The position numbers and the translations under genes were made by a program. DNA of 64,000 nucleotides from Bacteroidota bacterium. GTDB lineage: Bacteria > Bacteroidota > Ignavibacteria > UBA10030. Positions 18,111 to 54,117 of this stretch are shown here, piece by piece (position 1 is the first letter of the stretch; each line of letters begins with the position of its first letter). Location: assembly GCA_021813905.1 (NCBI GenBank), contig JAKAJH010000008.1:870-64869 (forward strand), written 5' to 3'. The notes under the pieces were generated by a model. It worked only from the letters and a program-made list of their open reading frames with translations. It ran no database searches and was not told the DNA's origin.

Positions 18111-18111
18111 A

Positions 18112-20381: not shown

Positions 20382-22535
20382 TCAGCGAATAATGACCATC
20401 TTCCGAATCGCAGTGTCGCCTTTGCGGTACAGGAGCTGACCCGTGTTCGGATCGTTGTAATCCTGTGTGACGGTGAAGTGGACGATGTACACTCCGCTCA
20501 CGACGAGCTGCCGCGAAGACGTCACAGAGTTCCACGCCTCATCGCCGCTGCCGTTCTCATGGCTGATTGTGTTGACCAGGTCCCCGTTTTCCGTGTAGAT
20601 ACGGATCAGGCAATGTCCGGGGATATTCAGGAACATGATCTTATCCGGCTCCCCGGGGTACTGGGCGCCCGGGGCGGCGATGTTGTACGGATTCGGCACG
20701 ATGCGGATGCTGAGAGAATCCTCGAGACTCTTCCCCGCCTGTCGACGCAGATACGCCGGCTGATTCGTCCTCGTGTAGAATCGGCTGCTCAGCAGAATGC
20801 CGGCCGGATTCGGGCCGCCGGATGTGTTGTTGGTTCCGTCGCTGAACGCCGAAATGTAATAGTAGTATGAGTATCCGCGCAACGCGGTGACGTCATCAAA
20901 CGATGTCGTTCCCGGCGGTACGCTTGCGATTTCCATGTACGATGTATCCGGTCGTCCGGTTGCGCGGAAGATCTTGTATCCGCCAAAGCCGGCAGATCCG
21001 TCCTGCGAGCTCGGGGACCACGCCATGCTGATGCGGTCGCCGCCCGACGTCACGTTGAAGATCGGCGGAGGCGGAGGCGGTTGCGGAATGTTGTAGTTCG
21101 AATCGTAGTTCCGCTTGGCCCTGCTGAACGTGAGCATGATGGAGTCTTTGCCGGTGAACACCCACGTATTCTTGAACACATCCTTATTGGTCGTGGTCGA
21201 TCCGTCCGGCAGCGTGAACGGTCCCACATCGCTCGGATTGTCGTATGCCGCTTTCCAGCGACTGCCGAGCTGCTCGCACACCTGTCGGTTCAGCCCTGCA
21301 ACACCTTCCGCCATGACAACGACGACGCTGTCGCCGGGGGCGATATCCCACGGGCCATAGTTGATCCAAAGATTCGTCCCGCCGCCGTCACCATGCACGG
21401 AGTACGGATCCTTGTTGGAGGCCATATACACTTCATCCATCCGCTCAGAGGGATTGCCCAACCCCTTGTACGGGACACCACTAAGCATCTTGTAGAGCGC
21501 CGTCTGGTTCGACGCATATCCGAGACCCATGTCACCCAGGTCCGGATACGTATCACCGGCATGCCAACCCAGCGTATTCGGCTGGTTGGGATCATCAGAC
21601 CGGTCTGTCACGCTGCGATCCACGTGCAGAGTCACGATGCCGGCAAATTGCGGTGCCGCAAAGCGGCCGTTACGCAACCGATCCGGCGCACCGATGTTGT
21701 CCCAGGAAGCATTCTCAGACTGACCGACGTAGCAGAAACCGGCCCGCAGCCACTGGGGGATCCCGCTTGCTTCCGTCAGGGCATCACCGGCGTGAAGCGG
21801 ATAATCCTCGCCCCGGCGAGTGACCCACGTGTGCTTGCCGTACGTCTGTGCGCCGTCGATCATGTTGGCGCCGTCGCGGCTGACGCTGTACCGGATACCG
21901 AACCCGAACCGGAAGCCCTTCACGGTGGCGTTCAGCTTCTGGATGTTCGTGGCGTCGACATAGCCGGTGTTCTTAAATGTGAACTCCTTGATGAAATAGT
22001 TGTCGTGATATTGCTGACTGAACGCCAGGATGCGGCGTGTCATGGTGATTCCCATCGAGGTATTCACGACGTTGACCACGATGCGGTCGGGAACCTGGTT
22101 GGGGTTGATCGCGTCGACATCGCCGGCGTACGGCCCGTTGATGTCCGCACCGTCCACATTGACGGTGGGAAGATCGTACTTCGCCGTCTCGTAGTCCGAC
22201 ATCGGGAACACGGAAATCCCGGCGAATCCGGCCGTGAATGACACGCAGTACTCGGTCCAGTGCTGAGTCTTGGCATCGGTGAAATCCTGGCAGCCGATCC
22301 ATTGCCGTTCGATGACCGCGTTGTCGGTGTAGGCGTAGTCCGCCGGCCAGATCATTCCTTCGTAATACACGTCGTTCCACGCGCGCTCCGCTCCGTAGGC
22401 GGTAAAGCGGCTTTGCAGTGATCCGACCCGCACGTACCGCTTTTGAGTTTCCGGGACCTGTGCGCGCACCGGCGTCACGCCGGACAGCAGGACGGTCGCG
22501 GCCAGAAGAGGAATACATGTACGCATGAGGGACAT
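20382..22535 (-). CDS. secreted FN3-domain protein with divergent T9SS/FlgD-Ig-like C-terminal sorting domain (paralog of 47513-49543)
   Basis: The track ORF runs to 22556. Start moved to MSLMRTCIPLLAATVLLSGVTPVRAQ, a signal peptide. It has an FN3-like segment (PPPPPPIFNVTSGGDRISMAWSPS...YKIFRATG...YSYYYYISAF). The C-terminal domain is VPNPYN...IMFLNIPGHCLIRIYTENGDLVNTI...SGVYIVHF...RKMVIIR. Confidence 0.6.
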   Translation of the reverse strand: MSLMRTCIPLLAATVLLSGVTPVRAQVPETQKRYVRVGSLQSRFTAYGAERAWNDVYYEGMIWPADYAYTDNAVIERQWIGCQDFTDAKTQHWTEYCVSFTAGFAGISVFPMSDYETAKYDLPTVNVDGADINGPYAGDVDAINPNQVPDRIVVNVVNTSMGITMTRRILAFSQQYHDNYFIKEFTFKNTGYVDATNIQKLNATVKGFRFGFGIRYSVSRDGANMIDGAQTYGKHTWVTRRGEDYPLHAGDALTEASGIPQWLRAGFCYVGQSENASWDNIGAPDRLRNGRFAAPQFAGIVTLHVDRSVTDRSDDPNQPNTLGWHAGDTYPDLGDMGLGYASNQTALYKMLSGVPYKGLGNPSERMDEVYMASNKDPYSVHGDGGGTNLWINYGPWDIAPGDSVVVVMAEGVAGLNRQVCEQLGSRWKAAYDNPSDVGPFTLPDGSTTTNKDVFKNTWVFTGKDSIMLTFSRAKRNYDSNYNIPQPPPPPPIFNVTSGGDRISMAWSPSSQDGSAGFGGYKIFRATGRPDTSYMEIASVPPGTTSFDDVTALRGYSYYYYISAFSDGTNNTSGGPNPAGILLSSRFYTRTNQPAYLRRQAGKSLEDSLSIRIVPNPYNIAAPGAQYPGEPDKIMFLNIPGHCLIRIYTENGDLVNTISHENGSGDEAWNSVTSSRQLVVSGVYIVHFTVTQDYNDPNTGQLLYRKGDTAIRKMVIIR

Positions 22536-22571
22536 CGTTGTTCTCCCAATCATCATGTCAGGAAACTGCCG

Positions 22572-25500
22572 TCAGAAATTGATCCGCAGACCAAACGTGT
22601 AACTGCGCGGGTTCAGGAACGTCGTGGACGTGACATCCGGCATGTCGATGTACGACTTCTTGTCCTTCCGCGCCTGGTTTCGGGCGCTGATGGCCGGGTC
22701 ATTGCTCGGGTTCGGCTCGAGCGGATCATACGCCACGCCATTCGGCCGGTAATCGCCGATCCGGTCGTTCCCCTTCTTGTCTCCCTCCATCCACGGGAAG
22801 CACAGCGACGCCAGATAGTCGTCATAGTCGTACTGACTGGAGAATCCCGCGTAGTTCAGGTGCTTGAAGTTGAACACGTTCTGAACGTCCATGTAGACCT
22901 GGAGTTCCACGCCGCTGATGCGGAGTGCCTTGGTGAGACGCAGGTCGATGTTGTAGCTGTCCGTCCACTGGACGTTATCGACGATGCCCGGGATGGAATT
23001 CGGATTGTAGGTGGCGTAGCTGCCCGCCCGCCAGTCGCCGAGGAGGTTCAGCGTCCACGCACCGAGCACCGAGACGCCGGCGAATTCCGGGCCGAACGTG
23101 TTCGGCGTAAAGAAGGAAAGGCTCGCCCGCGCGTACGGCTGCGGGTGCGGTTTCGACTGGTACGGATTCAGACGCAGATAGTCCCGCTGCTTGTTCACGT
23201 CCTGATAGTATTGAGTAAGGCCGAAGTAGCCGGAAGTACCGACGTCATAGGTGTAGTTGACAAAACCGCTGATCCATGGACCAGAGATCTTCGTGATCGT
23301 CAGTTCGAATCCGCGGATGTCCGCATAATTGTTGTTCTCCGCCTTATAATAGTGCACGGAGGTGTTGATGTTCTGGTAGTAGACCCATCCCGGCTGGTTC
23401 GACACGTCCTTGTAGTACGCGGCCAGATTGACCTTAAACATGTCGAATGCATTCTGCTCGAAGCCCAGCTCATACGCGATCGTCTTCTCGAGCTTCATAT
23501 TCGGATTGCCGATGTACGTCACCAATCCGTTGGATTCCCGCTGCAGCCGGAAGCGGAATGTGGACGACGGCTCGGAAAGGAAGTGGCCGTAGTTGAAGTA
23601 CAGTTTCGAGTTCTCGGTGATCGGATGCGAGATACCCAGCCGTGGACTCACGTACATCTCCGCACTCGCCCGCTCCTTCGGGGCCGTCTGACCGATCGCC
23701 TTCCCCAGTCCGGCGCTGTAGGAGAGATCGTAGTCGGACAGCGCGTAATAGTCACCGTTGGGATTGGAATAGTCCAGCCGGACACCGATATTCGCGATGA
23801 AGCCCCGGAATTCCAGTTTGTCCTGCACGTACGCACCCAGCCGGTACGGGAAGACATGATAGACCATGCTGCGCGTCCACGTGGACATGGAGGGGCTGTA
23901 GGTACCGGAATTCACATTCAGGTCGTCGTACGTGAACTGGAATCCCGCCTTCGCCTGGTTGTTCTCGTCCATCTGACTGGTGATGCCGAACTTGATCGCC
24001 GTCGAGGCGATCACACTCTGATCGCGGCCCAGGTTCATCCATCCCCCCATACTCATCACGCCATCGATCGCGCCCGTGCTGTATCCCCAATAGCCGTACG
24101 GCGATTCGTCCACAAAGATCCCCGACACGGGCTCGAAGACTTTGGCCGTGTCGCGCGTCGGCATCTGGAACGTATTGTACTGACTCCGGTTGTATTGTGC
24201 GCTCAGTTCATAGAACGTCCGCGGATTCAGCATGTGCGTCAGTGTCGCGCCGACCATGGTCCGATACACAGAGCTGGGGCTGTACCGGTCCGGCATGTAG
24301 AGCACGTTCATACCGTCCGTCGAGCTGAGCAGATCAGCCACCTCGGACTGGCTGCGCATCAGATAGCCGGTCGGCGCCGTGGTCCATTCGTACGGCGACA
24401 CGGAATTCGACTCCCCATACAATCCGATGACGTTCAGCTTCATGGTGGAAGTCAGATCGGACGTCAGTTTCAGCTGCGTGTGGTTGTCCGTGTATGCATC
24501 GCGAGAGAGAGGGACGATGAACATGTCGCGCTCATTGAAATGCGACAGATAGAAGCGGAGATTGCCGAGAACCTCCCCGATCACCGGCACCGGGCCGCCC
24601 ACGCCCGCATCGATGGTGTAGTCCGGTTTCACAATATCCCCGGTACGGCGGCGCTGCCACTCCCACAGTCGTTTGGCTCCCTCGGGGGTGAGATCATTGT
24701 TGGGGTTCTTGTCCGCCAGGGTAGCCGCCGACACGGCGTTCCAGCCCTGGAAGTATGGATACTCCTTCTGCGTCGCAGCATTCCACGCGCCGTTGCGGGT
24801 GCCGGTCCAGCACACGGTCGGGTCGGTGTACGGCCGGTTGAAGTATGAGTTCGGATCGTAGGGGGAGATACCGAAATGTTTTGGCGCCGGCGGTGTCAGG
24901 GAAAGATTGATCGTTCCGCTGTACCGATTGCGGTCACCTTCTTTGGTCACCACATTGACAACACCGGAACGGACGTTGCCATATTCCGCGTTGAATCCGC
25001 CCGTCTGCACCTGAATCGCCTGAGCGGCCGAAAGGCTCACTGCCGCGTACGGGATGTTCGTCCTCTCGTCATTCAACGTGAAACCGTCGACCACGAACAC
25101 TGTCTGGTTGGTGCCGCCGCCACGCACCACGATGCCGTCGCTCCCCTGCTCGATTCCGGCCTGCAGCGTCAGCACCTGACTCAGGGTTTGGATGGGCATC
25201 GTTTCGACGACTTTGGTGGCAATGTCAAACTGACTGGCCGAGATGTCCCTCGTAACGACCGGGCGTTCCGCGGTCACAACCATCTCATCCATTGCCACCG
25301 CGGACGGGCGCAGCTTCACATCCACGGTCGACGTCAGGTCGATCTCAACCTTGACCTGCTCCACCAGAGTCTTGGCATATCCGACAAGACTGACCTTGAC
25401 GGAGTAGGTCCCCGGGGGAACATTCAGCAGCGTATAGACGCCGTCCACATCGGTGACCACACCCATAGTCGATCCTTCGATCGTCACCGCAACACCGGGA

Positions 25501-25619
25501 AGCGGCTGACCCGTTTCAGCGTCCGTCACCCGTCCCGCGATCTTTCCCCGCGTTCCCGCGAAGAGGACGTTCGCGGTGCAGCACAGCAACAGCATGAATA
25601 CAATCGTCGCATTCCTCAT
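22572..25619 (-). CDS. TonB-dependent receptor with N-terminal carboxypeptidase-regulatory-like domain
   Basis: 1015 aa. Signal peptide, then GKIAGRVTDAETGQPLPGVAVTIEGSTMGVVTDVDGVYTLLNVPPGTYSVKVSLVGYA (CarbopepD_reg). A plug follows (IVVRGGGTNQTVFVVDGFTLNDER). A long beta-barrel ends ...TFGLRINF with a terminal aromatic residue. Paralog of 49594-52581. Confidence 0.9.
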   Translation of the reverse strand: MRNATIVFMLLLCCTANVLFAGTRGKIAGRVTDAETGQPLPGVAVTIEGSTMGVVTDVDGVYTLLNVPPGTYSVKVSLVGYAKTLVEQVKVEIDLTSTVDVKLRPSAVAMDEMVVTAERPVVTRDISASQFDIATKVVETMPIQTLSQVLTLQAGIEQGSDGIVVRGGGTNQTVFVVDGFTLNDERTNIPYAAVSLSAAQAIQVQTGGFNAEYGNVRSGVVNVVTKEGDRNRYSGTINLSLTPPAPKHFGISPYDPNSYFNRPYTDPTVCWTGTRNGAWNAATQKEYPYFQGWNAVSAATLADKNPNNDLTPEGAKRLWEWQRRRTGDIVKPDYTIDAGVGGPVPVIGEVLGNLRFYLSHFNERDMFIVPLSRDAYTDNHTQLKLTSDLTSTMKLNVIGLYGESNSVSPYEWTTAPTGYLMRSQSEVADLLSSTDGMNVLYMPDRYSPSSVYRTMVGATLTHMLNPRTFYELSAQYNRSQYNTFQMPTRDTAKVFEPVSGIFVDESPYGYWGYSTGAIDGVMSMGGWMNLGRDQSVIASTAIKFGITSQMDENNQAKAGFQFTYDDLNVNSGTYSPSMSTWTRSMVYHVFPYRLGAYVQDKLEFRGFIANIGVRLDYSNPNGDYYALSDYDLSYSAGLGKAIGQTAPKERASAEMYVSPRLGISHPITENSKLYFNYGHFLSEPSSTFRFRLQRESNGLVTYIGNPNMKLEKTIAYELGFEQNAFDMFKVNLAAYYKDVSNQPGWVYYQNINTSVHYYKAENNNYADIRGFELTITKISGPWISGFVNYTYDVGTSGYFGLTQYYQDVNKQRDYLRLNPYQSKPHPQPYARASLSFFTPNTFGPEFAGVSVLGAWTLNLLGDWRAGSYATYNPNSIPGIVDNVQWTDSYNIDLRLTKALRISGVELQVYMDVQNVFNFKHLNYAGFSSQYDYDDYLASLCFPWMEGDKKGNDRIGDYRPNGVAYDPLEPNPSNDPAISARNQARKDKKSYIDMPDVTSTTFLNPRSYTFGLRINF

Positions 25620-25678
25620 GATGGCACTCCTCTATCCAGTCACGCTCAATAGTGTTCGCTCGACCATTCGGCTGCCGG

Positions 25679-26713
25679 TCACATCGAGAACCGGAGCGAG
25701 AACCGATGCACATCCTTGAAGACCTTCTGCGGCATGTACGAGTAATCGAGGCCGAATCCGAATTTGCGCAGCCCCAGACCCGCCGTCACGTCGTAGTCCG
25801 GGTGTCCCGTGATATACCCCGCGCGCAGGATGAGCGTCTTGAGAAACACATATTCTCCGCCGATGTTCAGATACTCCGCGAACGACCGCGGATGGACAGC
25901 ATCGACGGACACGTACAGCGAATGATTCTCGGACGCCCCGGGGACCAGATCCATCAGATCCATGGAGACGCCGATCTTGAAGGTCAAGGGAAGCTGGAAG
26001 CTCTCACGCTCGTATCGGATCTCGCGGGAGAAGTTGCTGATCGACATGCCGAACACCAGACTCTTCAGACCGGTTCTGAACGTCGTGCCGAAATCAAAAG
26101 CCAGGACGCTCAGATTGTAGTCCCGCACCACGCTTGACGTGTCGACCGTGGGAGCGCCGGAATCCGGGATCACCTGCGTGTACACCGGCACGATGCTCTT
26201 TCCGAGACTCTGGTAGGCGTACTTCAACTCGCCGCCGACCGAAAAGCGATCGGTCAGCTTCTTGCCGTAGCCCAATCCGACCACATACGCACTCGGATTC
26301 GGGAAGTCTGTGATGTCTTCGTATCCCTGCTCATTTGCCGCAACCCGCGTGAACTTGAAGGCACCATAGTTGACGGTCGTAAAGCTGAGACCGATGACAC
26401 CGTACTGCCCTTCCGCCGGCGCGACCGCGACCGCCCCGGAGAGGTAGCGGATATCCGCGATCCACGTCATCTGATTGATGGAAAGATCAACCAATGACGT
26501 CATGCCGGCAATCCCCGCCGGATTATAGAACATCGACGTTGACGATCCCTCGACCGTCGTGAACGCCTCGCCCATCCCGGTGGCGCGGGCATCGGTGCTG
26601 ACACTCATGAACATGAATCCGGTCTGCGCCAGTTTCTGCTGCGCCTCCGCCGGGAGTGTCAACAGCGAGACCATGCACAGGATTGCGAGAACAGAGCATG
26701 CCGCTTTTTTCAT
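25679..26713 (-). CDS. PorV/PorQ-like (FadL-like) outer-membrane beta-barrel protein, T9SS-associated (PorP/SprF-like not excluded)
   Basis: The track ORF runs to 27082. Start moved to MKKAACSVLAILCMVSLLTLPAEAQ, a signal peptide. The N-terminal signature FMFMSVSTDARATGMGEAFTTV...SMFYNPAGIAG resembles PorV/PorQ-family N-termini. The C-terminus ...HRFSLRFSM has alternating hydrophobic residues. Confidence 0.45.
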   Translation of the reverse strand: MKKAACSVLAILCMVSLLTLPAEAQQKLAQTGFMFMSVSTDARATGMGEAFTTVEGSSTSMFYNPAGIAGMTSLVDLSINQMTWIADIRYLSGAVAVAPAEGQYGVIGLSFTTVNYGAFKFTRVAANEQGYEDITDFPNPSAYVVGLGYGKKLTDRFSVGGELKYAYQSLGKSIVPVYTQVIPDSGAPTVDTSSVVRDYNLSVLAFDFGTTFRTGLKSLVFGMSISNFSREIRYERESFQLPLTFKIGVSMDLMDLVPGASENHSLYVSVDAVHPRSFAEYLNIGGEYVFLKTLILRAGYITGHPDYDVTAGLGLRKFGFGLDYSYMPQKVFKDVHRFSLRFSM

Positions 26714-27657: not shown

Positions 27658-27855
27658 TCACATTTTCAGGTATTCCAACAACTTGTAGATCAGCACAGCC
27701 GGCCAGACGAGCGCTTTGACGAATCCCAGGAGGCCCTCCCAGAACGTCGTCGCATGCTGAATGAAGTAGATGGCTGCGCCAACGAATGCCATGCCATAGA
27801 TGCCGCCGCTGACGCCGTTGTCTTTCATGGCGGTCGTTCCGCGAATTTCGCTCAT
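27658..27855 (-). CDS. small hydrophobic protein (65 aa), function unknown
   Basis: Internal ATG with a GGGAGG RBS about 8 nt upstream. Product MSEIRGTTAMKDNGVSGGIYGMAFVGAAIYFIQHATTFWEGLLGFVKALVWPAVLIYKLLEYLKM has two predicted TM helices. Confidence 0.35.
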   Translation of the reverse strand: MSEIRGTTAMKDNGVSGGIYGMAFVGAAIYFIQHATTFWEGLLGFVKALVWPAVLIYKLLEYLKM

Positions 27856-31060: not shown

Positions 31061-31068
31061 GGCAGTGG

Positions 31069-41914: not shown

Positions 41915-43858
41915 TCACCGTACCAGAAGCATCTTCTTCGCGGAGACAGCGTTCCCCGCCTTCAGTTCATACACATAGGTTCCGGACGACACGGGTGCGC
42001 CATGCGCATTCTTTCCGTCCCAGGAGATGCGGTATTCGCCGGGCCGCATCGGTTCATCCACCAGCGTCGCCACTTCGCGACCCAGCATGTCGAATACCGT
42101 GAGCGTCACATGGACAGAGGAGGTTTCCTGCTCCGCCATGCCCGGACGTGCCTCCGTTGCGGAGATCCGGAATCGGATCGTGGTCGACGGGTTGAAGGGA
42201 TTCGGGTAATTGTCGAACAGCTGCATTCCCGTCGGGACGGCGGATCCCGACGCGCCGCCAGGAACACGGGTGATCACGGCTGTCGGGGAGAGCCGTCGAT
42301 TCAGCATCAGCATGGCCGCATCAGCCACGAGGTATTCGCCGGACGCAAGCTGCGAATTGTCAACCGTCAGCACGGCGAAGGTGCCGGGCGAGAGGTGCAC
42401 GGTCCCGATCTTCTCCCATCCCTTCCGCGTCAGATCGGTCTGGTCAACAACGACCACGGAGGAGTCCCCATCGCCGCGGAGGGTATACACTGCGTGCCGG
42501 GTCCAGATGGTGTTGGGGGTCATGTAAGCGTACACATCATAGAATCCGGACGCACTGATCGTGAAGTCATAGCGGATGCTGGCGGCATTGACCGTGTCGC
42601 TCGTCCGGTCGATCATCCCCTGGTAGCCCTTCATGGCGTAGCTCGTCCAGACTCCCGACACTTCGGCCGCGGCGTCGGTCTCGTTCACGATCTGTGCCGG
42701 TGCGATCCACCGGATGCCGTTCCGGTACGGCAACAGAGCCGGGGACTGGTAGAAGTTCCGCTTGAGATAGCTCCCGATTGCATCGCCGTTCGCCCGGAGT
42801 CCTTCATAGAAGAAGAAGCACTCCCCGTTCGCTCCTTTCGTCCGCGAGGCTGAGATCATCTGACCGAGGAACATCGTGTCCACCACATATGTCCCGACAC
42901 GTGCCAGAATGCCGGCCGTGAAGGCCAGCGGATCGTACTGGCCCACGTCGGTCCATGTCGTATTCAGGGCGTACGTGTAATCGCTGAGGTTGTACTGGTA
43001 GAGCTGGGGAATGATGTTATCGACGAGCTTCTGTTGAGCCCACGTTTTCGAATCCTGCAGCAGTTCGCGATATCCCCAATAGTATGGGGCCGGAGAGACC
43101 GACAGGATCAGGTTCGTGTCGCGCGCGGCGACCGAGTCGCGGAGACGGCTCAGGAATTGCGTCAGCTTGTCCGCCCGCCATCGCATCCACGCAGTGTCGT
43201 ACATGTCGGTCGGCGGGGCCTGGCCCGCATGCTCTGCCTTGTAGATCTGGACGGTGACCGAGTCATATCCGCCCTGTACCGGCATCGCCGGCAAACGGTC
43301 ATCTCCCTGCACGCCGTCCACGTTGTAGCGGTCGAGCACTTCGGTCATCAATGACAGGATGAAGTTCTGCGCATCCGGATTGATCGCGGACATCCAGTCG
43401 AAACCGTTGTCCACGACGAGATTGCCGTTCACATCATCAAGAGCCCAGGACGGATACTCTGCAATGATGTGTCCGCCGTTCAGACTGTATGAGGTCGAGA
43501 ATCCGAACTCGAACCACGGGATGACCTCGATGCCGTTCCGGTGCGCTTCGATCACCAGGCGGTCCAGGAAGTCACGGCCGACGAACGGCGAATTCGGCAA
43601 TACCGGCGCGCCGAAAAGATTCGTCATGATCGGGCTGGGATAGAGCGTGTACCCTTTGTTGTAGACGACCGGGAAGACCACGTTGACGCCGATGGAGGCG
43701 AGATAGTCCATCGCATCGGCGATGTTCTGATCGGTGAAGAGGACGTTGCTGTCGACATTCGTCAGCCACACCGCCCGAAGCTCGGACGGTTGCTGCGCCC
43801 GGGCGGGAACCGCAAGAGCAATTGCCAGCACGGCCGGCACGAATCGTTTCAGCGTCAC
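41915..43858 (-). CDS. GHL10-type (family-10-like glycosylhydrolase, DUF187) secreted protein with T9SS C-terminal domain
   Basis: Track ORF to 44317. I prefer the GTG start VTLKRFVPAVLAIALAVPARAQ, with GGAGAG upstream, which overlaps the stop of the upstream paralog as GTGA. Hydrolase core LRAVWLTNVDS...IEVIPWFEFGF...DGVQGDDR. C-terminal CTD DNYPNPFNPSTTIRFRI...KKMLLVR. Confidence 0.7.
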   Translation of the reverse strand: MTLKRFVPAVLAIALAVPARAQQPSELRAVWLTNVDSNVLFTDQNIADAMDYLASIGVNVVFPVVYNKGYTLYPSPIMTNLFGAPVLPNSPFVGRDFLDRLVIEAHRNGIEVIPWFEFGFSTSYSLNGGHIIAEYPSWALDDVNGNLVVDNGFDWMSAINPDAQNFILSLMTEVLDRYNVDGVQGDDRLPAMPVQGGYDSVTVQIYKAEHAGQAPPTDMYDTAWMRWRADKLTQFLSRLRDSVAARDTNLILSVSPAPYYWGYRELLQDSKTWAQQKLVDNIIPQLYQYNLSDYTYALNTTWTDVGQYDPLAFTAGILARVGTYVVDTMFLGQMISASRTKGANGECFFFYEGLRANGDAIGSYLKRNFYQSPALLPYRNGIRWIAPAQIVNETDAAAEVSGVWTSYAMKGYQGMIDRTSDTVNAASIRYDFTISASGFYDVYAYMTPNTIWTRHAVYTLRGDGDSSVVVVDQTDLTRKGWEKIGTVHLSPGTFAVLTVDNSQLASGEYLVADAAMLMLNRRLSPTAVITRVPGGASGSAVPTGMQLFDNYPNPFNPSTTIRFRISATEARPGMAEQETSSVHVTLTVFDMLGREVATLVDEPMRPGEYRISWDGKNAHGAPVSSGTYVYELKAGNAVSAKKMLLVR

Positions 43859-44994
43859 TGTCTCTCCTCGATGGCCGGGAATTCCGCCCGGTCGTGATAC
43901 CATTCGCGAAATACATCTGCGTGTGCGCGCAGTCCTTCGTAGAAGAACATCACTTCCCCCTGGATCCCGTGCGACCGGTTCTCCTGCAACATGCCGGTCA
44001 GGAATTCCCTGGACGGCGTGTACGAACCGAGCTTCAGAAGGACTCCGGGGAGGCACTTCGCCAGTTCTTCCTTCGTCAGCTGTCCGTCGACCATTTCCCG
44101 CAGTGTGGCCGCGTATTCTGTCAGCGAGTACCGGTAGACCTGCGGATGCACCATGTCGACCCAGCCGCGCTTGACCCAGGTCGGCCAGTCCTGCAGGTAT
44201 TCCTCCTTGCTCCACGGATACACGCTCGGCGACATGGAGATGATCAGCCTCGGGTTGAACGCTTTCACCGTGTCGTGGATCCTCTTCATGAAGGCATTGA
44301 GCAGGTCCGCGCGCCACTGCACCCAGTCAGGATCCTTTGCGTCGGTCGGCGGATTCGCACCGCAATGCTCAGCGCGGTAGAGACTCACGGTGTACGCATC
44401 GTATCCACTTTCGGACGGCATAGCGGGCAACCGGTCATCCCCCTGGATGCCGTCAACGTCGTAGTGCGTCACGACCTCCATGATCAGCGAGAGCATGAAG
44501 TCCTGCACATCCGGTAGGAATCCATTCATCCATTCAAATCCATTCTTCGTCACCAGGTCGCCGTGGATATCACGCGACGCCCACGCCGGCCTCGCCCGCA
44601 GGATCGGTCCGCCCTGCTGCTGGTAGGAGGCTGAGAAGCCGAACTCGAACCACGCGATGACCTGAATCTGCTTCCGGTGCGCCGCGCTGATCAGCTCGCG
44701 CAGCGGATCGCGTCCGGTGAACTGAGTGTCGATCGCGACTCCCGTCAGCCGCTCCATGATCGCACTCGGATACGTCGTCATGGATTTGTTCCAGGTGACG
44801 ACGAAGATCGTGTTGAATCCCAGCGAGTCGCACAAATCCACGGCCTGCTCGATCCCGGCACGCGAGTTCAGCACACGGCTGTCGACGTTGGTGAGCCACA
44901 CACCGCGGACGGCCCGAGGCTGTCCGGCGAACGCGATGGAGGCACACACGCCGACGGCAATGAGGATAATCAACGCACGCAAACGGATCACCAT
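43855..44994 (-). CDS. GHL10-type family-10-like glycosylhydrolase, secreted, no CTD
   Basis: Start moved to MVIRLRALIILIAVGVCASIAFAG, a signal peptide. Same core motifs as the neighbour (VRGVWLTNVDS, IQVIAWFEFGF, DGIQGDDR). Length 379 aa. Confidence 0.7.
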   Translation of the reverse strand: MVIRLRALIILIAVGVCASIAFAGQPRAVRGVWLTNVDSRVLNSRAGIEQAVDLCDSLGFNTIFVVTWNKSMTTYPSAIMERLTGVAIDTQFTGRDPLRELISAAHRKQIQVIAWFEFGFSASYQQQGGPILRARPAWASRDIHGDLVTKNGFEWMNGFLPDVQDFMLSLIMEVVTHYDVDGIQGDDRLPAMPSESGYDAYTVSLYRAEHCGANPPTDAKDPDWVQWRADLLNAFMKRIHDTVKAFNPRLIISMSPSVYPWSKEEYLQDWPTWVKRGWVDMVHPQVYRYSLTEYAATLREMVDGQLTKEELAKCLPGVLLKLGSYTPSREFLTGMLQENRSHGIQGEVMFFYEGLRAHADVFREWYHDRAEFPAIEERQ

Positions 44995-45013
44995 CGCTCC
45001 TTCCGTTTCAGGA

Positions 45014-45730
45014 TCACAATTCCACCTTGAGGCCGCCGCGAACGGTGACCATCTGGATGCCGGAGACGTTTTCCATATCGAATTCGAGGGCCGGCCAAAG
45101 CTCACCGATGATCAGCCGATAATCCGCTCCCAGCGTCACGGAGACCGGGCCGGTGATCGCGATGCCGAGATCGACGCCAAGATTGATGCTGCCGCTCCAG
45201 TCCGTTTGCTGGTTGTCCGGCACCGCAAGCGTCGCCGCATTAGTCCGGAGTCCCGTCACGGTACTGATGACGAACAGCGAGTCGTTGTAGGCGTCGCGGG
45301 AAAATTCCCAGTGGTAAAATCCGAATCCGAGATGGCTGTTCACTTCCAGGCGCGTCCAGCGGGCCACATTCGTGATTGCCTCCGCGGTGAAGCCGGAGGC
45401 CCGAAACCGCATCGTCAGCCCCGGGAGCGGCACCCGGTATTCCTGCGTCCCGCCGCCTTCCTGTAACTTGACCGTTTTGAACAAACGGTCTGTGTTCAGC
45501 GTCCGCAGTTCGAAGTACTCAAACTTGCCAACCCAGGCCCAGTCCGGGCTCGTGCGCTGTCCTGCGTAGATCATGACTCCCGCCGCCGGCTTGAACCGAA
45601 CGCTCAGGGAACCCACAGGCATCTCCGCCACACCGGCGATTCCCGCGACGAACGCGCCGGATTGCGCGCGAAGGGACGGCACTGCCGCCAGCACAGCCAG
45701 GATGAAGAACAGATACTTCTTCACGATCAT
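45014..45730 (-). CDS. outer-membrane beta-barrel-like hypothetical protein
   Basis: 238 aa. Signal peptide MIVKKYLFFILAVLAAVPSLRAQ and amphipathic beta-strand pattern. Confidence 0.5.
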   Translation of the reverse strand: MIVKKYLFFILAVLAAVPSLRAQSGAFVAGIAGVAEMPVGSLSVRFKPAAGVMIYAGQRTSPDWAWVGKFEYFELRTLNTDRLFKTVKLQEGGGTQEYRVPLPGLTMRFRASGFTAEAITNVARWTRLEVNSHLGFGFYHWEFSRDAYNDSLFVISTVTGLRTNAATLAVPDNQQTDWSGSINLGVDLGIAITGPVSVTLGADYRLIIGELWPALEFDMENVSGIQMVTVRGGLKVEL

Positions 45731-45734: not shown

Positions 45735-46445
45735 CTAGTAGTGGAAAATCAGACCGAGATTCAGAGCGACGGAACTGATCAGCGGAAATTCACCGTCCCC
45801 GCTCAGGACCGACACATACTCCCGGTACGTTGCTCCGGCGACGAGGCTCACACCCGTCGCCACATGGTACTCGGCCGATCCCCCGACGTCGATGAACGCC
45901 GACCTCCCATTCTTATCCGGTGCGAAGTTCCGGAGATTGTAGGTGAGCGTGTAGTCCGCCTGCGGGAACGCCTTCGTCCACGTTTCATCCGCGTAGAGCG
46001 TTCGGGTGAAGAACGCGACGCCGCCCCCGACTGCCGGGATCAGACGTACCGCATCGTTCACGGCAAACTCGTACTCGAGACAGAGAGACACGGGAAGCAA
46101 ATCCATACCCTGAACGGAATTAATTACCGACTTCAGATTGGGATCAGCCTTCATATCCGCCTGGATTTTGGGATAGTAGCGTTCATTCCAGAACCTCCAG
46201 TTCCAGCGATTCAGCTGATCGGGTTGATCAAGCGCAAAAAAAGCGTAGCCCCCTTTGACCCCGAGGAGCACATCGCCGAACAGATGGAAGCGTACTTCCG
46301 CCCCGCCCCCGATCGCACGGATGTTCCGTGCGCTCATTCTCGAGGAGAGACCGACCGTTCCATCGCCGGTCGTACTGATGGAACGCACTTGCGCTCCAGC
46401 GACAGAGATGAACAGCAGCAGGCAGCACACCAGCATTCGCGCCAT
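45735..46445 (-). CDS. outer-membrane beta-barrel hypothetical protein
   Basis: Start at internal MARMLVCCLLLFISVAGAQ. Alternating hydrophobic strands. The C-terminus ...LNLGLIFHY carries a terminal aromatic residue typical of OMPs. Confidence 0.5.
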   Translation of the reverse strand: MARMLVCCLLLFISVAGAQVRSISTTGDGTVGLSSRMSARNIRAIGGGAEVRFHLFGDVLLGVKGGYAFFALDQPDQLNRWNWRFWNERYYPKIQADMKADPNLKSVINSVQGMDLLPVSLCLEYEFAVNDAVRLIPAVGGGVAFFTRTLYADETWTKAFPQADYTLTYNLRNFAPDKNGRSAFIDVGGSAEYHVATGVSLVAGATYREYVSVLSGDGEFPLISSVALNLGLIFHY

Positions 46446-46501: not shown

Positions 46502-47473
46502 TCATATGCCACACTGGACGGTCAAACGCGAGATTGTGCCGAGACGCCCGTAATCGGAAACTGCGATATCGAGACTCACCGGGACGGTCAGCCCGGGATT
46601 GATGCCAAGGCCGAGACTGTACGATTCCTCATCCGCAAAGAACTTGTACCCGCCGCGCAGGATGAGCACATTCCGCCACCCCACCTCGCCACCCACGTTG
46701 ATCTTTTCGGAAGCGTCGTTGGGGTGCAGTGCTTCTGCCATAAGCGTGATGGTGGTCTCCGCATCCTTCCCGCCGAGGACATCCATCGCCGCCCCCATCT
46801 TCAGTACCGACGGCATCTTGAACTGATCGTTGATGAACGTGGCGTTCACACCGAAGTTCTGAATGCTCGCAGCAATGCGAAGCGTCCCGAGCCCCGTGTA
46901 GTAGAGTACGCCGCCGTCGAACAGAACGTTGCTGGCGGAGTAGATATCGATCGTTTCCTTCACATATTTCACCGTCGTGCCGAACGCGAACCTGTCAGTC
47001 AACATGCGCGAGTATGTCAGTCCGACGGCCAGAGATCGCGCGTTGAACGAGCCGATGATGTCGTACACCTTCTGCCCGTCGCCGATCACCGTCCGCGGCA
47101 TCGTCCCGTAGTCGAACAGGATCGCTCCAAGGGCAATCACTCCCTCCCCCGGGTTGAATGCGTAGGAGAATCCGTAGTTCTTGATGTCGGCAAACCACGG
47201 AGCGTACGAAGCCGAGATCGAGTGCGTCATCGTGGTGAATCCCAGTCCCGCCGGATTGTCGAACACCGACGCCGAACCCTGGTCGGAGAGCGCCAGCGAG
47301 GATTCGCCAAGAGCAGCCACCCGCGCACTCACGGGGACCTCCAGGAATGTGAATCCCGCCGTGGCATTGCTTTTGAACATCTGCGCACCCAGCATCGCCG
47401 GCAGGAGGGTCAGCAGAACAGGCAGCAGGCCGAAACACCATCTCCGGGGCTGACGCGGCCGGGGCGCATTCAT
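46502..47473 (-). CDS. PorV/PorQ-like (FadL-like) outer-membrane beta-barrel protein, T9SS-associated (second copy)
   Basis: Signal peptide (MNAPRPRQPRRWCFGLLPVLLTLLPAMLGAQ or 8 aa longer). N-terminal signature FTFLEVPVSARVAALGESSLAL...SVFDNPAGLGF is related to 25679-26713. It lies immediately downstream of the FN3/CTD gene. Confidence 0.45.
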   Translation of the reverse strand: MNAPRPRQPRRWCFGLLPVLLTLLPAMLGAQMFKSNATAGFTFLEVPVSARVAALGESSLALSDQGSASVFDNPAGLGFTTMTHSISASYAPWFADIKNYGFSYAFNPGEGVIALGAILFDYGTMPRTVIGDGQKVYDIIGSFNARSLAVGLTYSRMLTDRFAFGTTVKYVKETIDIYSASNVLFDGGVLYYTGLGTLRIAASIQNFGVNATFINDQFKMPSVLKMGAAMDVLGGKDAETTITLMAEALHPNDASEKINVGGEVGWRNVLILRGGYKFFADEESYSLGLGINPGLTVPVSLDIAVSDYGRLGTISRLTVQCGI

Positions 47474-47512: not shown

Positions 47513-49543
47513 TCATCGCACAATGGCAAGTTTTCCGATCTTGCTGCCGACCGGCGATTCAACGTGATAGATGTAGATTCCGCTCTTGACGAACTGGCCA
47601 TAGTCGGTGACCTGATCCCACGAGGCGATCGCTCCCGCCCCGTCCGCCACGCGGATCGTTTTCACCAGATCGCCCCGCACCGTGTAGATCCGGATCGTGC
47701 AGGGATTCGGGATGTTGACGAACTCGATCTGATCCCCGGCTCCGGGCTGGGAGAATCCTGCGCCAATCACAAACGGATTGGGCACAGCAAGGACGTTGTC
47801 TACTGTCTGCGACGGCGCGAGCGTCGCCACGAACGGCATCGACGTCCGGTTCGCGAAGATCGACGACTCCATCGGCGGGACATTCGTGACCGTCTGAACG
47901 CCCGTCCAGCTTGCCCGTCCCGAATTGAAGGCCGTCACCGCATAGTAATATCCTTTGCCGATGTCGACCGTGGAATCGATGTAGGTGTAGAGCGATCCGG
48001 ACAGGTGCGCCGGACTCCCCTTCCACACGGTATCAAGCGCGCTCCACGGGCCGATCGGGAGATAGCCGGACCGGTACACGATGTAGCCGGCCAGGGAATT
48101 CCCTCCGTCATAGGCGTCCGGGATGCGCTCCGCGTCGGTCGTCCAGCTCAGGACGTTCGCGACCGTGCGGCCGGTCCGATTGTAGTCCACCGTGAATGCC
48201 GGGGCGGCCGGTGGATTCGGGTGCGAGTAGTTGTTGTCGAACGTGAACTGCGCCCGGGCCGCCGTCGCGTTGAACGCCTTCCGGCCATCCTGATAGATCT
48301 GCGTCGCCGTATTGTGCGCCGGATCGATGGCACGCGCATAATCCACGCCGTCGACCATCTCCGCAAGCACGATGCGGATCGAATCGCCGGGAAGGATCGT
48401 CCAGGGGCCGATCGACATCAACGACCACATGCGCGATTTCCGCATGAAGACGGTATCGAACGGACTACTCACGAAGTTGAACGCGAGACGGATGTCGCGC
48501 AGGACGCCGTACATCGGTTCCGGCAAGGCCGGAATATTCGTGAATGGACCCCGGTCCTGCGTGCTGCTGCCCGCAGACCATCCATATTGATTGATTGTGC
48601 TTGTGCGCCCCGCATTGTCCCGGGAGGAATACAGCAGCGAGAATCCTGCGATCCCGGGCGCGAGGTATTCTCCCGTCGGCGTGCCATTCACTACCGGTCC
48701 CATCGACGCCGCGTAGCCCATATCCTCGCTGATGCCGATCGTGCTCGGATCGTCGACCGCCCGGCCGAGGATGAGCCGGCGTGCGGCATCATAGATGAAC
48801 GCCGTGTTTCGGGCGCCGGGTGACAGCGAGGGGAACAGCACGGTCCACTCACGGGAATTGCAGTGAATGCCGTACGAGATCATAGCGGAGAAATCATAGA
48901 GCGTGTCCGCCACAAATCGACCGGGAGGCGCAGAGGCACGGATCTCGGGCGAGATGTTCCGGATGACATACTCCACGATGATGTAGTTCTCATCGGTCTT
49001 CGAGCCGCTCCACTGATGCACCGTGCGCGTCACCCGGATCGGAAGCATCCGCTTGTACATCTCTTCATTGTTGTCGGTGTAGTTCTTGTTGTATTCCCAG
49101 ACGGTCCGAAACGCCTGCTCGCCGGCATGGTCATCGGCCTGCACCCAGAAGTTGCCGCCGTTCGGGTACAGTTCCTTGTTCGTGGTCACCACGTATTTCG
49201 CGTTCGCGCCGTCCGAGATCGATCCGGCGTACATCGCCCAGTCATCGACCGTGATGACGCTGTCGGGACTCCACTTCGCGCCGACGTACAGACCGCCCGA
49301 GACGAGATAGGACGCCGATCCGCCGATGTTCTCGCTGATGAGCGTCGGGTCGAATCCCGGCCAGTCCAGACCAACCCCTTTCGTCGACCAGTCACTGAAC
49401 GGCGGTCCGGACTTGCCGTAGCTGAAGGTCTCCCACAGTTTTCCCCGGTTCAGGATCATCAGGGAGGATGCCTCGACCTGGCCGAAGGCCTCCATGATCC
49501 CTCCGAAGAGGAGCAACGCAAGCAGAGACACCCGAGTGCTCAT
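47513..49543 (-). CDS. secreted FN3-domain protein with divergent T9SS/FlgD-Ig-like C-terminal domain (paralog of 20382-22535)
   Basis: Track ORF to 49768. Start moved to MSTRVSLLALLLFGGIMEAFGQ, a signal peptide. C-terminal VPNPFVIGAGFSQPGAGDQIEFVNIPNPCTIRIYTVRGDLVKTI...SGIYIYHV...GKLAIVR parallels the C-terminus of the other copy. Confidence 0.6.
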   Translation of the reverse strand: MSTRVSLLALLLFGGIMEAFGQVEASSLMILNRGKLWETFSYGKSGPPFSDWSTKGVGLDWPGFDPTLISENIGGSASYLVSGGLYVGAKWSPDSVITVDDWAMYAGSISDGANAKYVVTTNKELYPNGGNFWVQADDHAGEQAFRTVWEYNKNYTDNNEEMYKRMLPIRVTRTVHQWSGSKTDENYIIVEYVIRNISPEIRASAPPGRFVADTLYDFSAMISYGIHCNSREWTVLFPSLSPGARNTAFIYDAARRLILGRAVDDPSTIGISEDMGYAASMGPVVNGTPTGEYLAPGIAGFSLLYSSRDNAGRTSTINQYGWSAGSSTQDRGPFTNIPALPEPMYGVLRDIRLAFNFVSSPFDTVFMRKSRMWSLMSIGPWTILPGDSIRIVLAEMVDGVDYARAIDPAHNTATQIYQDGRKAFNATAARAQFTFDNNYSHPNPPAAPAFTVDYNRTGRTVANVLSWTTDAERIPDAYDGGNSLAGYIVYRSGYLPIGPWSALDTVWKGSPAHLSGSLYTYIDSTVDIGKGYYYAVTAFNSGRASWTGVQTVTNVPPMESSIFANRTSMPFVATLAPSQTVDNVLAVPNPFVIGAGFSQPGAGDQIEFVNIPNPCTIRIYTVRGDLVKTIRVADGAGAIASWDQVTDYGQFVKSGIYIYHVESPVGSKIGKLAIVR

Positions 49544-52677: not shown

Positions 52678-54117
52678 TTATTTCATCAGCACCATCTTCC
52701 GCGTGATACGCGCGGACGGTGTCATCAGCGTGTAGAAGTACACCCCGCTCGGGTACTGGTCGCCGCGGAACACTTCCGCATGCGGCCCGGCCGGGAGTGT
52801 CCCATCGACCAGGGTCGTCACCTCCCGTCCAAGAAGATCCGTCACCACCAGGCGCACGGGGACCGCGGAGGAGAGCGTGAACGAAATGATGGTCGAGGGA
52901 TTGAACGGATTGGGATAATTCTGGCGAAGCGAGAAATCGAGCGGCCGGTGAACATCGGGTCCGACGCTCGTCGTCCCGTTCGTGAATTTCCAGGCGCAGC
53001 GGGCATAGCGGTCGATCACGTAGATCGTGCCGCCGTCCTTCGTCACCGCGACGTCACTCGGTGCAAGCATCGGCGCCCCGTTCGGCGAGGGAACATCCGT
53101 GCTGTTCTGGCTCGGCAGGTCGTACGTCGCGAGCGCGTTGATGCCGTCCACGGTGAATCCTTTTACCCATCGCCGCGTGGAGTCAACCCCGGCGACCCAG
53201 AGCGTTCCCGACGTATCGACGGTGATGCCGTACGGGAAGTACTCGATGAATGCCAGGAAGCCGTCGAAATCGGTGATTCGGGAGGGCGTGTACTGGATCG
53301 GCTGCACCTGCGTCCCGCCGGTCCAGACGGCGATGCCGCCCGTAATCTGCGTCCCGGAGATTGAGTTGCGGGAAGTGTAGAACGGCGTGGACTTGGCATA
53401 GTAGTCCCCGTTCGGGACCAGCGCGACGTCGCGGATCAGGTCCAGACCGCTGGTCTGCGGTCCGCCCGGCTCCGTCGCATTGCTGAAGATTGTATTGTTC
53501 GTCGTGTCGGGCAGATTCCATGATCCACGGGCGGATTTCTTGAAGGTGTATCCCCAATTATACCAGCGCACGGACGTGCCAAAATCGATCCCTGCGATCA
53601 GCATCGAATCGCACGACATGTCGGCGCCGTTGATGAAGGATCCGTACCCGGAGCCGGCGATATTGAAGCCGAACCGCTCCACCTGGTTCGTGTCGGCATT
53701 GGTGTAGTAGTACGCCGCGGCCAGCGTGTTCGGCTTCGTCTTCGGATACGGTTGCGAGGCCGTGATGATCACGTCATTCTTCAGCGTCGTGATCCCGCGC
53801 AACGCGCCGATGTTGCCGCTGGTCGTGTCGGAATCCCCGTTCAGGTCGTAGTCGATGAACTTCGAGAAGACGGTGTCGCCCGGATTGGCATAGTAGATGG
53901 CGTTGTGGGCTTTCGGATCGTCGACTTTCGCCGAGATTACGTAGAGCCGGCCATTCTGATCCAGCGTACAGAGGTAGGGACGGGCAGCGATGCTGTCCGC
54001 CACGGGAAAGACGATCCGTCCGACGTACGACCACGGATTCGTCTGGGCGAATCCCGCCGACAGACCGAGGATAAGTGCAACAACGGTCAGCGCTGTGCTG
54101 TATCGTGCGTTCTTCAT
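52678..54117 (-). CDS. secreted beta-propeller-like hypothetical protein with T9SS C-terminal domain
   Basis: 479 aa with a signal peptide. Repeated G(T)LYVI/GTLWVAG/GTIYVID strand motifs. CTD RQNYPNPFNPSTIISFTL...GVYFYTLM...RKMVLMK. Confidence 0.7.
   Translation of the reverse strand: MKNARYSTALTVVALILGLSAGFAQTNPWSYVGRIVFPVADSIAARPYLCTLDQNGRLYVISAKVDDPKAHNAIYYANPGDTVFSKFIDYDLNGDSDTTSGNIGALRGITTLKNDVIITASQPYPKTKPNTLAAAYYYTNADTNQVERFGFNIAGSGYGSFINGADMSCDSMLIAGIDFGTSVRWYNWGYTFKKSARGSWNLPDTTNNTIFSNATEPGGPQTSGLDLIRDVALVPNGDYYAKSTPFYTSRNSISGTQITGGIAVWTGGTQVQPIQYTPSRITDFDGFLAFIEYFPYGITVDTSGTLWVAGVDSTRRWVKGFTVDGINALATYDLPSQNSTDVPSPNGAPMLAPSDVAVTKDGGTIYVIDRYARCAWKFTNGTTSVGPDVHRPLDFSLRQNYPNPFNPSTIISFTLSSAVPVRLVVTDLLGREVTTLVDGTLPAGPHAEVFRGDQYPSGVYFYTLMTPSARITRKMVLMK

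Follow-up and report, generated by a model that had tools for sequence, protein, structure and literature searches.

Glycan foraging in Bacteroidota is regarded as typified by paired SusC-type transporters and SusD-type lids (SusCD), which rely on lipoproteins at the surface. Many abundant environmental relatives of these bacteria, including Ignavibacteria, Calditrichota, KSB1 and Marinimicrobia/Fidelibacterota from soils, sediments, wastewater and the deep ocean, possess type IX secretion system (T9SS) cargo and TonB-dependent receptors, with few SusD genes. Here, a duplicated three-gene cassette is described from a 64,000-nt stretch of DNA (hereafter the window; G+C content 61%) of an Ignavibacteria genome of the UBA10030 lineage (GCA_021813905.1, contig JAKAJH010000008.1, positions 870 to 64,869). 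It encodes a TonB-dependent receptor, a partner protein with a fibronectin type III (FN3) domain and a T9SS-type tail, and an outer-membrane beta-barrel of the PorV/PorQ family. The cassette offers a testable answer to how SusD-poor relatives might equip a receptor with a surface partner. As a combination, the module appears to be new in that it would join a transporter-lid pair to a T9SS cargo pair with a cognate barrel. A full-text literature search, whose coverage was incomplete, yielded no description of a module of receptor, T9SS-tailed partner and PorV-like barrel, in line with a first-pass annotation of the same sequence that had called the arrangement unfamiliar from the literature; the genome papers of Melioribacter roseus and Caldithrix abyssi do not mention the module.

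The closest described systems each share part of this arrangement. As in SusC/SusD and RagA/RagB, the receptor gene comes first and the surface partner follows after a short gap. As in SusC/SusD, the receptor begins with a CarbopepD_reg extension followed by a TonB-box-like strand and a plug, the operons include secreted or surface glycan-degrading enzymes and a regulator, and the pairs duplicate and diverge as units. In contrast to SusC/SusD, the cassette receptor fails the SusC/RagA model beyond the first ~210 residues, and the partner is predicted to be all-beta with an FN3 domain rather than alpha-helical with tetratricopeptide repeats, has no conserved lipid anchor and ends in a T9SS-type tail. 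The cassette also includes a third gene, for the PorV-family barrel, and the partner of the A type (copy A of the window and its orthologs) is far more conserved than SusD-like proteins. An adjacent pair of susC-like and susD-like genes, which defines a polysaccharide utilization locus (PUL) in the strict sense, is not present, and the locus is PUL-like in layout only.

The PorQ-PorZ and PorV-PorU pairs of Porphyromonas gingivalis likewise associate a PorV/PorQ-family barrel with a T9SS substrate whose C-terminal domain (CTD) is atypical and, in PorZ and PorU, retained for anchoring (PMC10947112, PMC10202324), and the tails encoded in the window match the C-termini of PorZ and PorU best, though weakly. 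The cassette differs in that its barrels are not orthologs of PorQ or PorV, its cargo is unrelated to PorZ and PorU outside the tail, and the pair is coupled to a TonB-dependent receptor and present in several copies per genome. Another likeness is provided by type B CTD cargo and its PorP/SprF-like barrels (SprB-SprF, PG1035-PorP), as a cargo-specific barrel encoded beside the cargo mediates its secretion and surface anchorage (PMC9143113; PMC10202324), whereas the cassette barrel reaches 22 bits on the PorP/SprF model, the cassette tails align with CTDs like those of type A rather than type B, and type B pairs occur without a receptor. Price, Deutschbauer and Arkin described alternative lids for non-SusC TonB-dependent transporters in Bacteroides, likewise identified by conserved proximity (bioRxiv 10.1101/2023.03.17.533168). 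Those lids are lipoproteins only, without T9SS tails or a PorV-family barrel, and they are likened to the cassette by concept, with no sequence relationship claimed. By analogy with these systems, and with a little better than even confidence, the T9SS would export the partner, the cognate barrel would hold it at the surface as PorQ holds PorZ, and the partner would capture substrate for the receptor.

Two diverged copies and their conserved linkage

All six genes lie on the minus strand. Copy A comprises the barrel (nt 25679..26713; 344 aa, with a signal peptide), the receptor (nt 22572..25619; 1015 aa) and the partner, FN-A (nt 20382..22535; 717 aa), with 59 nt between barrel and receptor and 36 nt between receptor and partner. 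Copy B comprises the receptor (nt 49594..52581; 995 aa, with CarbopepD_reg, plug and barrel), the partner, FN-B (nt 47513..49543; 676 aa), and the barrel (nt 46502..47473; 323 aa), with 50 nt between receptor and partner and 39 nt between partner and barrel, so that the barrel gene is first in copy A and last in copy B. The copy A products of 344, 1015 and 717 aa are the deposited gene calls on contig DAIERF010000012.1 of a metagenome-assembled genome (GCA_027347005.1), and the nearest relatives of the window genes carry the labels Ignavibacteria or Bacteroidota. Between the copies, the barrels share 30% identity (E-value 2e-35), the receptors 26% end to end over ~990 aa (E-value 5e-64), and FN-A and FN-B 29% over the C-terminal ~420 aa (E-value 2e-35). 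The first ~260-290 residues of FN-A and FN-B are far more diverged and scarcely alignable even by a family profile. Judged by this divergence, copies A and B are old, diverged paralogs. Chance co-location and a simple recent duplication were both ruled out, the copies being 26-30% identical and each type having its own orthologs elsewhere. The first-pass annotation had placed the six reading frames at these coordinates, read the two sets as pairwise paralogs with the receptor directly before the FN3/CTD protein and the barrel upstream in copy A and downstream in copy B, and noted that a SusD-like lipoprotein was absent; all of this holds (gaps measured at 36 and 50 nt, identities of 26-30% with E-values of 2e-35 to 5e-64), and no SusD-family Pfam match was found in the ~50 open reading frames (ORFs) scanned.

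A degenerate two-motif scan of one genome per GTDB species located partner relatives in 245 genomes, of which the best 79 loci, all from other species, were surveyed by tblastn with the six window proteins. By record label, these loci belong to Ignavibacteriota, Kryptoniota, Calditrichota, KSB1, Fidelibacterota/Marinimicrobia and Ca. Zhuqueibacter; the labels 'Chitinophagaceae', 'Cytophagia' and 'Acidobacteriota' on some loci are probably unreliable. In all loci with upstream sequence (75/75; median gap 57 nt), the gene immediately before the partner, on the same strand, is the receptor, and 43 of the 52 loci that could be fully tested have an adjacent PorV-family barrel (42 ahead of the receptor, 4 after the partner). 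Every surveyed barrel gene (70/70) adjoins the receptor start and/or the partner end, and a second, diverged module occurs within 22 kb in 32/52 loci. This arrangement of receptor, partner and barrel is far beyond chance, and in several lineages labelled as separate phyla the cassette genes move, duplicate and diverge as a set.

The divergence of the genes is also coordinated. Pairwise distances of receptor and partner correlate with r = 0.92 (87 pairs, paralogs included), and the distances between paralogs of the same locus track each other for receptor and partner (0.26/0.29, 0.37/0.41 and 0.65/0.71). Among 53 complete triples, receptor distances follow the partner N-domain (partial r 0.92) and not the tail (0.02), and barrel distances follow the tail weakly (partial r 0.17; reached in 2/300 permutations, p ~0.007) and not the N-domain (-0.32), the tail alignment being short, the barrel assignment ambiguous in tandem arrays, and correlations of this kind being inflated by shared ancestry. 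Exploratory as it is, this domain-wise covariation is what contacts of the receptor with the N-domain and of the barrel with the tail would be expected to produce.

Receptors and barrels

Receptor A contains a CarbopepD_reg N-terminal extension (nt 25275-25541, minus strand as for all parts of the cassette; Pfam CarbopepD_reg_2, 74.6 bits), a TonB-box-like DEMVVTA (nt 25269-25289) between the extension and the plug, and the plug itself (nt 24924-25250; PF07715, 30.6 bits, cut-off 23.9), followed by a barrel that is supported by partial NCBIfam TonB-receptor matches at residues 428-792. Receptor B matches CarbopepD_reg_2 (71.7 bits), Plug (PF07715, 31.0 bits, cut-off 23.9) and TonB_dep_Rec_b-barrel (PF00593, 47 bits). 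The motif E-V-V-V-[VT]-A-x-R-P is kept in all 66 of the 66 receptor homologs that cover the region, and its position suggests that this strand is the TonB box. By their domain matches, both proteins are TonB-dependent receptors with the layout of SusC-type transporters, namely a CarbopepD_reg extension, a TonB-box-like strand, a plug and a large barrel. On the SusC/RagA model TIGR04056 they reach 76.9 (A) and 58.9 (B) bits against a cut-off of 368, and these matches are confined to the first 130-210 residues, that is, the CarbopepD_reg extension plus, in A, part of the plug; the receptors are therefore SusC-like in layout and not SusC-family members.

The receptor layout also bears on whether the trio serves nutrition at all. 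As a module of the cell surface or of the secretion machinery, the trio might be an adhesin plus anchor, or an accessory unit of the T9SS or of outer-membrane biogenesis that uses a receptor-like barrel. This would agree with the very high cross-phylum conservation of the A-type genes, which resembles machinery rather than substrate-specific uptake, and has a precedent in adhesin-anchor pairs of the SprB/SprF type (PMC9143113; PMC10202324). Such a role is nevertheless highly improbable, as the receptor has a complete TonB-dependent importer layout (extension, conserved TonB-box-like strand and plug), several diverged paralogs of the module are present per genome, and the operons also hold secreted glycosidase-like enzymes, sugar regulators and sugar-metabolism genes.

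The favored reading, in which the partner serves an importer, also assigns to the barrel the role of a T9SS-type anchor. On the NCBIfam model for the PorV/PorQ family (NF033709, PorV_fam; cut-off 90 bits), barrels A and B score 194.4 and 171.1 bits over their full length, both above the cut-off. On the equivalog models for PorV (NF033710, cut-off 250) and PorQ (NF033711, cut-off 220), barrel A scores 83 and 81 and barrel B 60.9 and 119.3, respectively, all below the cut-offs, with PorQ as the best equivalog of barrel B. The PorP/SprF model (TIGR03519, cut-off 90.55) gives 22.1 bits for barrel A and no match for barrel B, and Pfam PorV gives 25.6 (A) and 24.4 (B), narrowly under its gathering score of 27. 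The sole solved relative found for the barrels is PorV (6h3i_F; E-value 6e-7 for barrel A). According to these scores, both barrels are members of the PorV/PorQ family but distinct paralogs, orthologous to neither PorV nor PorQ.

A working FadL-type channel, unconnected to the T9SS cargo and taking up a small hydrophobic or amphipathic product in parallel with the receptor, is an improbable identity for the barrel. PorV has been described as a FadL homologue (PMC12578637), and the failure of both barrels at the PorV and PorQ equivalog cut-offs would suit such a channel, but the PorV/PorQ family model is passed strongly (194 and 171 versus 90 bits), the only solved relative found is PorV, every surveyed barrel lies beside a protein with a T9SS-like tail, and barrel and tail covary, if weakly.

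The T9SS-type tail of the partner

A barrel that anchors the partner, as favored here, would act on the C-terminal tail, which spans nt 20385-20714 in FN-A, where it was recognized as a divergent T9SS-type CTD by profile-profile alignment, and nt 47516-47791 in FN-B. Judged from its sequences, the organism clearly uses a T9SS, and at least five other window proteins score at or above the curated cut-offs for T9SS CTDs (TIGR04183, 23 bits; Por_Secre_tail PF18962, 27 bits). A profile of 35 partner tails aligned with a profile of nine genuine CTDs from the window and two related loci at 88.9% hhalign probability (E-value 2.4e-6), and this alignment spans the PNPxN, central-strand and SGVY motifs. 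The conserved C-terminus of the partner, K[LM][VI]IIR, resembles the K-x-hydrophobic-[KR] ends of the genuine window cargo. The C-terminal region of the PorZ model is weakly matched by 29/34 partner orthologs, FN-B has weak matches to PorZ, PorU and TIGR04183, and the NCBI product name of some FN-B orthologs is 'T9SS type A sorting domain-containing protein'. At the same tail position, the family member P0218 passes PF18962 with 33.7 bits, and P0126 (25.4) and P0122 (22.5) fall narrowly under the cut-off of 27. FN-A and FN-B themselves stay below the curated thresholds, but these comparisons suggest that the partner tails are homologous to genuine T9SS CTDs, although atypical and PorZ-like, rather than of the standard type A.

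The first-pass annotation had proposed checks that could have undone its reading of the cassette, and the computational ones came out in its favor. The reading is thereby supported in part; its functional core is a proposal, in which the partner would replace SusD at the surface and the barrel would be a dedicated shuttle or anchor for it. The barrels, which might have proved to be unrelated porins without conserved linkage, are of the PorV/PorQ and not the PorP/SprF kind. The FN3 proteins, which might have lacked export signals or a functional CTD, carry Sec signal peptides, and their tails align with genuine CTDs at the hhalign values given above. The survey of genomic context found the linkage strongly conserved across several Fibrobacteres-Chlorobi-Bacteroidetes (FCB) lineages (75/75 for receptor and partner, 43/52 for the barrel).

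Domains and fold of the partner

FN-A consists of a signal peptide (nt 22461-22535), a novel beta-rich N-terminal domain of ~455 aa (nt 21090-22460) followed by a Pro-rich linker, an FN3 domain recognized by Foldseek and a PDB profile search (nt 20811-21065), and the tail. FN-B has the same plan, with a diverged N-domain after the signal peptide (nt 48224-49480), an FN3 domain at about nt 47918-48199, and the tail. An AlphaFold2 model of FN-A built with 34 orthologs (predicted local distance difference test score, pLDDT, 80.8; predicted template modelling score, pTM, 0.77) contains a signal peptide, a mostly-beta domain of ~455 aa with few helices, a poly-proline linker, an FN3 domain at residues ~491-575 and a C-terminal beta-sandwich at ~608-717. 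Pfam fn3 gave no match to the partner, and the PDB profile search matched FN3 at profile positions 481-571 (E-values 9e-5 and 1e-3); Foldseek with the full-length model returned FN3 tandems only, with probability 1.00. The partner is an FN3-domain protein, as the first-pass annotation had labelled it, but that label undersells it, because ~455 of its ~700 residues belong to the novel N-terminal domain.

The PDB sequence-profile search found nothing for the N-domain. A model of the N-domain only (pLDDT 70) gave weak Foldseek matches (E-value 6e-6; query-normalised TM-score 0.29) to the N-terminal supersandwich domains of GH94, GH161, GH149, GH116, GH65 and GH63 enzymes, with no catalytic domain attached. 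In this model, the N-domain thus weakly resembles accessory supersandwich domains of glycoside phosphorylases and hydrolases, the resemblance being weak because the N-domain-only model is of lower quality. The signal peptide of the partner is of the signal peptidase I (SPase I) type, and a lipobox Cys is not conserved. A lipoprotein identity was considered and rejected: a lipobox-like Cys occurs in 6/34 orthologs, is not conserved, and is followed by a conserved SPase I site. The partner is not a SusD/RagB protein either, having no SusD Pfam match, a mostly-beta model and no conserved lipobox Cys.

No Pfam family was found for the partner, which NCBI annotates as 'fibronectin' or 'hypothetical'. 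A search of 1.84 billion cluster representatives recovered 496 clusters (50% identity) at E-values <= 1e-30, a large protein family that so far has no Pfam or NCBIfam model. Most members are 660-760 aa long, with a subset of 1350-1600 aa that has extra beta-helix modules, and FN-B orthologs are 50-81% identical. In the long variants (P0122, P0126 and other proteins of 1350-1600 aa), the N-domain and FN3 are retained and followed by ~900 residues of beta-helix (Chlamydia PMP repeats, pectinesterase-like) and then by a T9SS-type tail for which Por_Secre_tail is narrowly under the Pfam cut-off and FlgD_ig above it. P0218 has an N-terminal BNR/sortilin propeller instead of the long beta-helix.

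These features also allow the partner to be ordinary T9SS cargo, an enzyme or binding protein that is released or attached to lipopolysaccharide through the general PorV/PorU route and that, though encoded in the same operon, acts ahead of the receptor without entering a complex with it. In that case the barrel would be no anchor but an additional PorV paralog, raising or specialising the secretion of the many CTD-bearing proteins encoded at these loci. Canonical CTD cargo is abundant there, a nearby barrel is missing for some receptor-partner pairs, the strong conservation and many invariant polar residues of the N-domain would fit an enzyme, and the beta-helix modules of the long variants (pectinesterase-like, PMP-repeat) are typical of secreted enzymes and adhesins. 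Nonetheless, this alternative is rather unlikely. The adjacency of receptor and partner is absolute (75/75), with short gaps and distances correlated at r = 0.92, and is tighter than that of any enzyme gene (GHL10, 18/40); moreover, the tail is systematically atypical and PorZ-like rather than a standard type A CTD, and no catalytic fold or family was detected in the partner.

Proposed function and substrate

The reading preferred here, of a barrel-held partner that serves the receptor, combines two known principles, the logic of transporter-lid pairs and that of cognate barrels in the T9SS. The first is suggested because gene order, the SusC-like N-terminal layout, the PUL-like context and unit-wise duplication mirror SusCD. 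For the second, PorZ and PorU keep their CTDs and are held at the surface by PorQ and PorV (PMC10947112), and cognate PorV-like barrels have been proposed in a review to protect CTDs from cleavage, an idea extended to type B cargo with PorP/SprF barrels (PMC10202324; PMC9143113). By this analogy, the partner would cross the outer membrane via the T9SS, and its atypical tail would stay uncleaved and be captured by the cognate PorV-family barrel, which would keep the partner tethered to the cell surface next to its receptor. The N-domain may then bind a substrate produced by secreted GHL10 enzymes and hand it to the receptor, which would import it using TonB energy. The partner would in this way fill the role that SusD and surface glycan-binding lipoproteins have in Bacteroidia, without a lipid anchor.

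The substrate may, speculatively, be an amino-sugar glycan, perhaps peptidoglycan. This guess is made because T9SS-tailed GHL10 enzymes are neighbours of the cassette and Cwp19 of C. difficile, a peptidoglycan lytic transglycosylase, is the sole GHL10 enzyme for which activity on a structural polymer has been defined (PMC6016235); starch hydrolysis has been reported for another member (PMC9967864). A bolder version is put forward tentatively, as possible but doubtful. In it, the cassette would be a lipoprotein-independent counterpart of SusCD, with a T9SS-delivered lid, an uncleaved PorZ-like tail and a barrel of its own, forming a three-protein complex across six lineages (Ignavibacteriota, Kryptoniota, Calditrichota, KSB1, Fidelibacterota and Zhuqueibacterota, as labelled), and the A-type unit with its GHL10, amidase and NagZ-like companions would harvest peptidoglycan from bacterial necromass.

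Several observations weigh against the anchor-and-lid interpretation. On the tail, FN-A has no TIGR04183 match, and FN-B reaches 16.3 bits against 23 on TIGR04183 and 12.2 against 27 on PF18962. The fold match of the modelled N-domain is weak (TM-score 0.29; pLDDT 70). Across phyla, orthologs of the A-type partner share 55-88% identity, a conservation far above that of SusD-like binding proteins, and one that might point to an enzyme or a structural part of a machine instead; the numerous invariant His, Asp, Glu and Trp residues in the N-domain are compatible with an active site. Nine of the 52 testable loci have no adjacent barrel, and in four loci (L059, L065, L073 and L060) two receptor-partner pairs are accompanied by only one barrel or none within 22 kb, so that pairs and barrels do not strictly match one to one. 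Barrel and tail covary to a small extent, and in tandem arrays it is ambiguous which barrel belongs to which pair. The dedicated-anchor and lid roles are argued by analogy, and the substrate proposal leans on a single characterised GHL10 enzyme, with another reported on starch (PMC9967864).

If the preferred interpretation is true, the emerging rule by which PorV-like barrels hold specific uncleaved T9SS substrates, as for PorQ-PorZ and PorP with type B cargo, would extend to nutrient uptake. In the bolder version, the T9SS would take a direct structural part in importing nutrients, and the cassette would be the principal device by which several FCB lineages poor in SusD take up glycans. Should peptidoglycan be the substrate, the cassette would also point to a widespread route by which necromass is recycled.

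Neighbouring genes

Copy B sits in a ~26-kb minus-strand cluster and a larger conserved operon. The cluster encodes a ROK regulator, an NHL protein with a CTD, two GHL10 enzymes, DUF5009, DUF4623 with a CTD, DUF4855, an FAD oxidoreductase, a hydantoinase and a GlcNAc 2-epimerase. The order of a CTD protein, receptor, partner, barrel, two ~240-aa proteins, GHL10, and GHL10 with Golvesin_C and a CTD is reproduced gene for gene in L084 (Melioribacteraceae) and L085 (Ignavibacteriaceae). At the head of the cluster, a ROK-family regulator or kinase (nt 54211..55425, minus strand; ROK 136 bits, with a winged-helix HTH) is a candidate regulator by its position alone. The first gene of the operon encodes an NHL/beta-propeller protein with an NHL match and a canonical T9SS CTD (nt 52678..54117, minus strand; TIGR04183, 33.3 bits, cut-off 23), and L084 has a 477-aa CTD protein at this position. 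Downstream of barrel B lie genes for a small secreted beta-rich protein with a signal peptide and an alternating beta pattern (nt 45735..46445, minus strand) and for a second such protein (nt 45014..45730, minus strand), neither with a Pfam or NCBIfam match. Genes of 242-249 aa and 237-240 aa occupy the respective positions in L084 and L085, counterparts that are matched by size and position only, and both proteins (nt 45014-46445) may be putative small outer-membrane barrels. A GHL10 glycosyl-hydrolase-like enzyme without a CTD follows (nt 43855..45105, minus strand; 416 aa; PF02638, 230.6 bits), which is also present in L084 and L085, and then a GHL10 enzyme with Golvesin_C and a T9SS CTD (nt 41915..44317, minus strand; PF02638, 191 bits; FlgD_ig/Por_Secre_tail; TIGR04183, 23.0, at the cut-off). 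The latter ORF overlaps the upstream GHL10 gene and is probably over-extended at its 5' end, with the real start near 43.85 kb. The catalytic domains of the tandem GHL10 genes (nt 41915-45105) are ~50% identical, and a GHL10 doublet or triplet is also found in L084 and L085.

Neighbours of A-type modules were counted by clustering all ORFs of the survey loci and annotating representatives. A TIG and propeller protein of ~414 aa directly follows the A-type partner in 51/79 loci (e.g., L031:5154-6398) and ranks fourth in conservation among the genes of the A-type module, although it is not present after copy A in the window; its N-terminus weakly matches lipoprotein models, and it could be a further surface component. 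Other neighbours of A-type modules are a beta-propeller protein with a CTD (~450 aa; 27 loci), a GHL10 enzyme with Big_5 and a CTD (~1034 aa; 18 loci by clustering, and a GHL10 catalytic-domain match in 18/40 full-length loci) and an Amidase_3 protein with Big_5 and a CTD (6 loci). Elsewhere in the window, a NagZ-like GH3 beta-N-acetylhexosaminidase (nt 14125-15504, minus strand; 175 bits to PRK05337, cut-off 207) has a canonical T9SS CTD, and would be an extracellular or surface version of a normally cytoplasmic peptidoglycan-recycling enzyme.

The DUF5009, DUF4623, DUF4855, epimerase, hydantoinase and FAD oxidoreductase genes lying between copies A and B lack counterparts in the surroundings of A-type modules at other loci, and this sugar-metabolism block is therefore no guide to the A-type substrate. 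The hydantoinase/oxoprolinase-like gene, a 505-aa protein without a family match and the PF12831 FAD oxidoreductase (nt 28714-36327, minus strand) recur beside the B-type operon in L084 (L084:1-5228), which suggests that they belong to the same pathway as that operon.

Copy A in the window is the bare three-gene form and is followed by unrelated MerR and cytochrome genes. This redox module (nt 17457-20186, minus strand), directly downstream of copy A, contains a MerR regulator, a 522-aa multihaem cytochrome c (Cytochrome_cB, c7 and MtrC-like matches) and a cytochrome b561; it has no relation to the cassette and delimits the copy A operon at its downstream end. A scan for sigma-70 promoters and terminators around copy A gave results no better than shuffled sequences, and an Rfam scan of the whole window found nothing. 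In the 1.6 kb that separate the GlcNAc 2-epimerase gene from copy A, otherwise poor in genes, an ORF on the plus strand (nt 27984-28676) contains two homing-endonuclease-associated repeats (PF18780, 80.9 bits), and a possible 65-aa membrane peptide is encoded opposite it (~nt 27658-27850, minus strand). In a 367-aa protein (nt 12200-13303, minus strand), CarbopepD_reg is the only recognisable part, without plug or barrel, and small genes encoding only CarbopepD_reg (271 and 333 aa) flank the B-type operon in L085.

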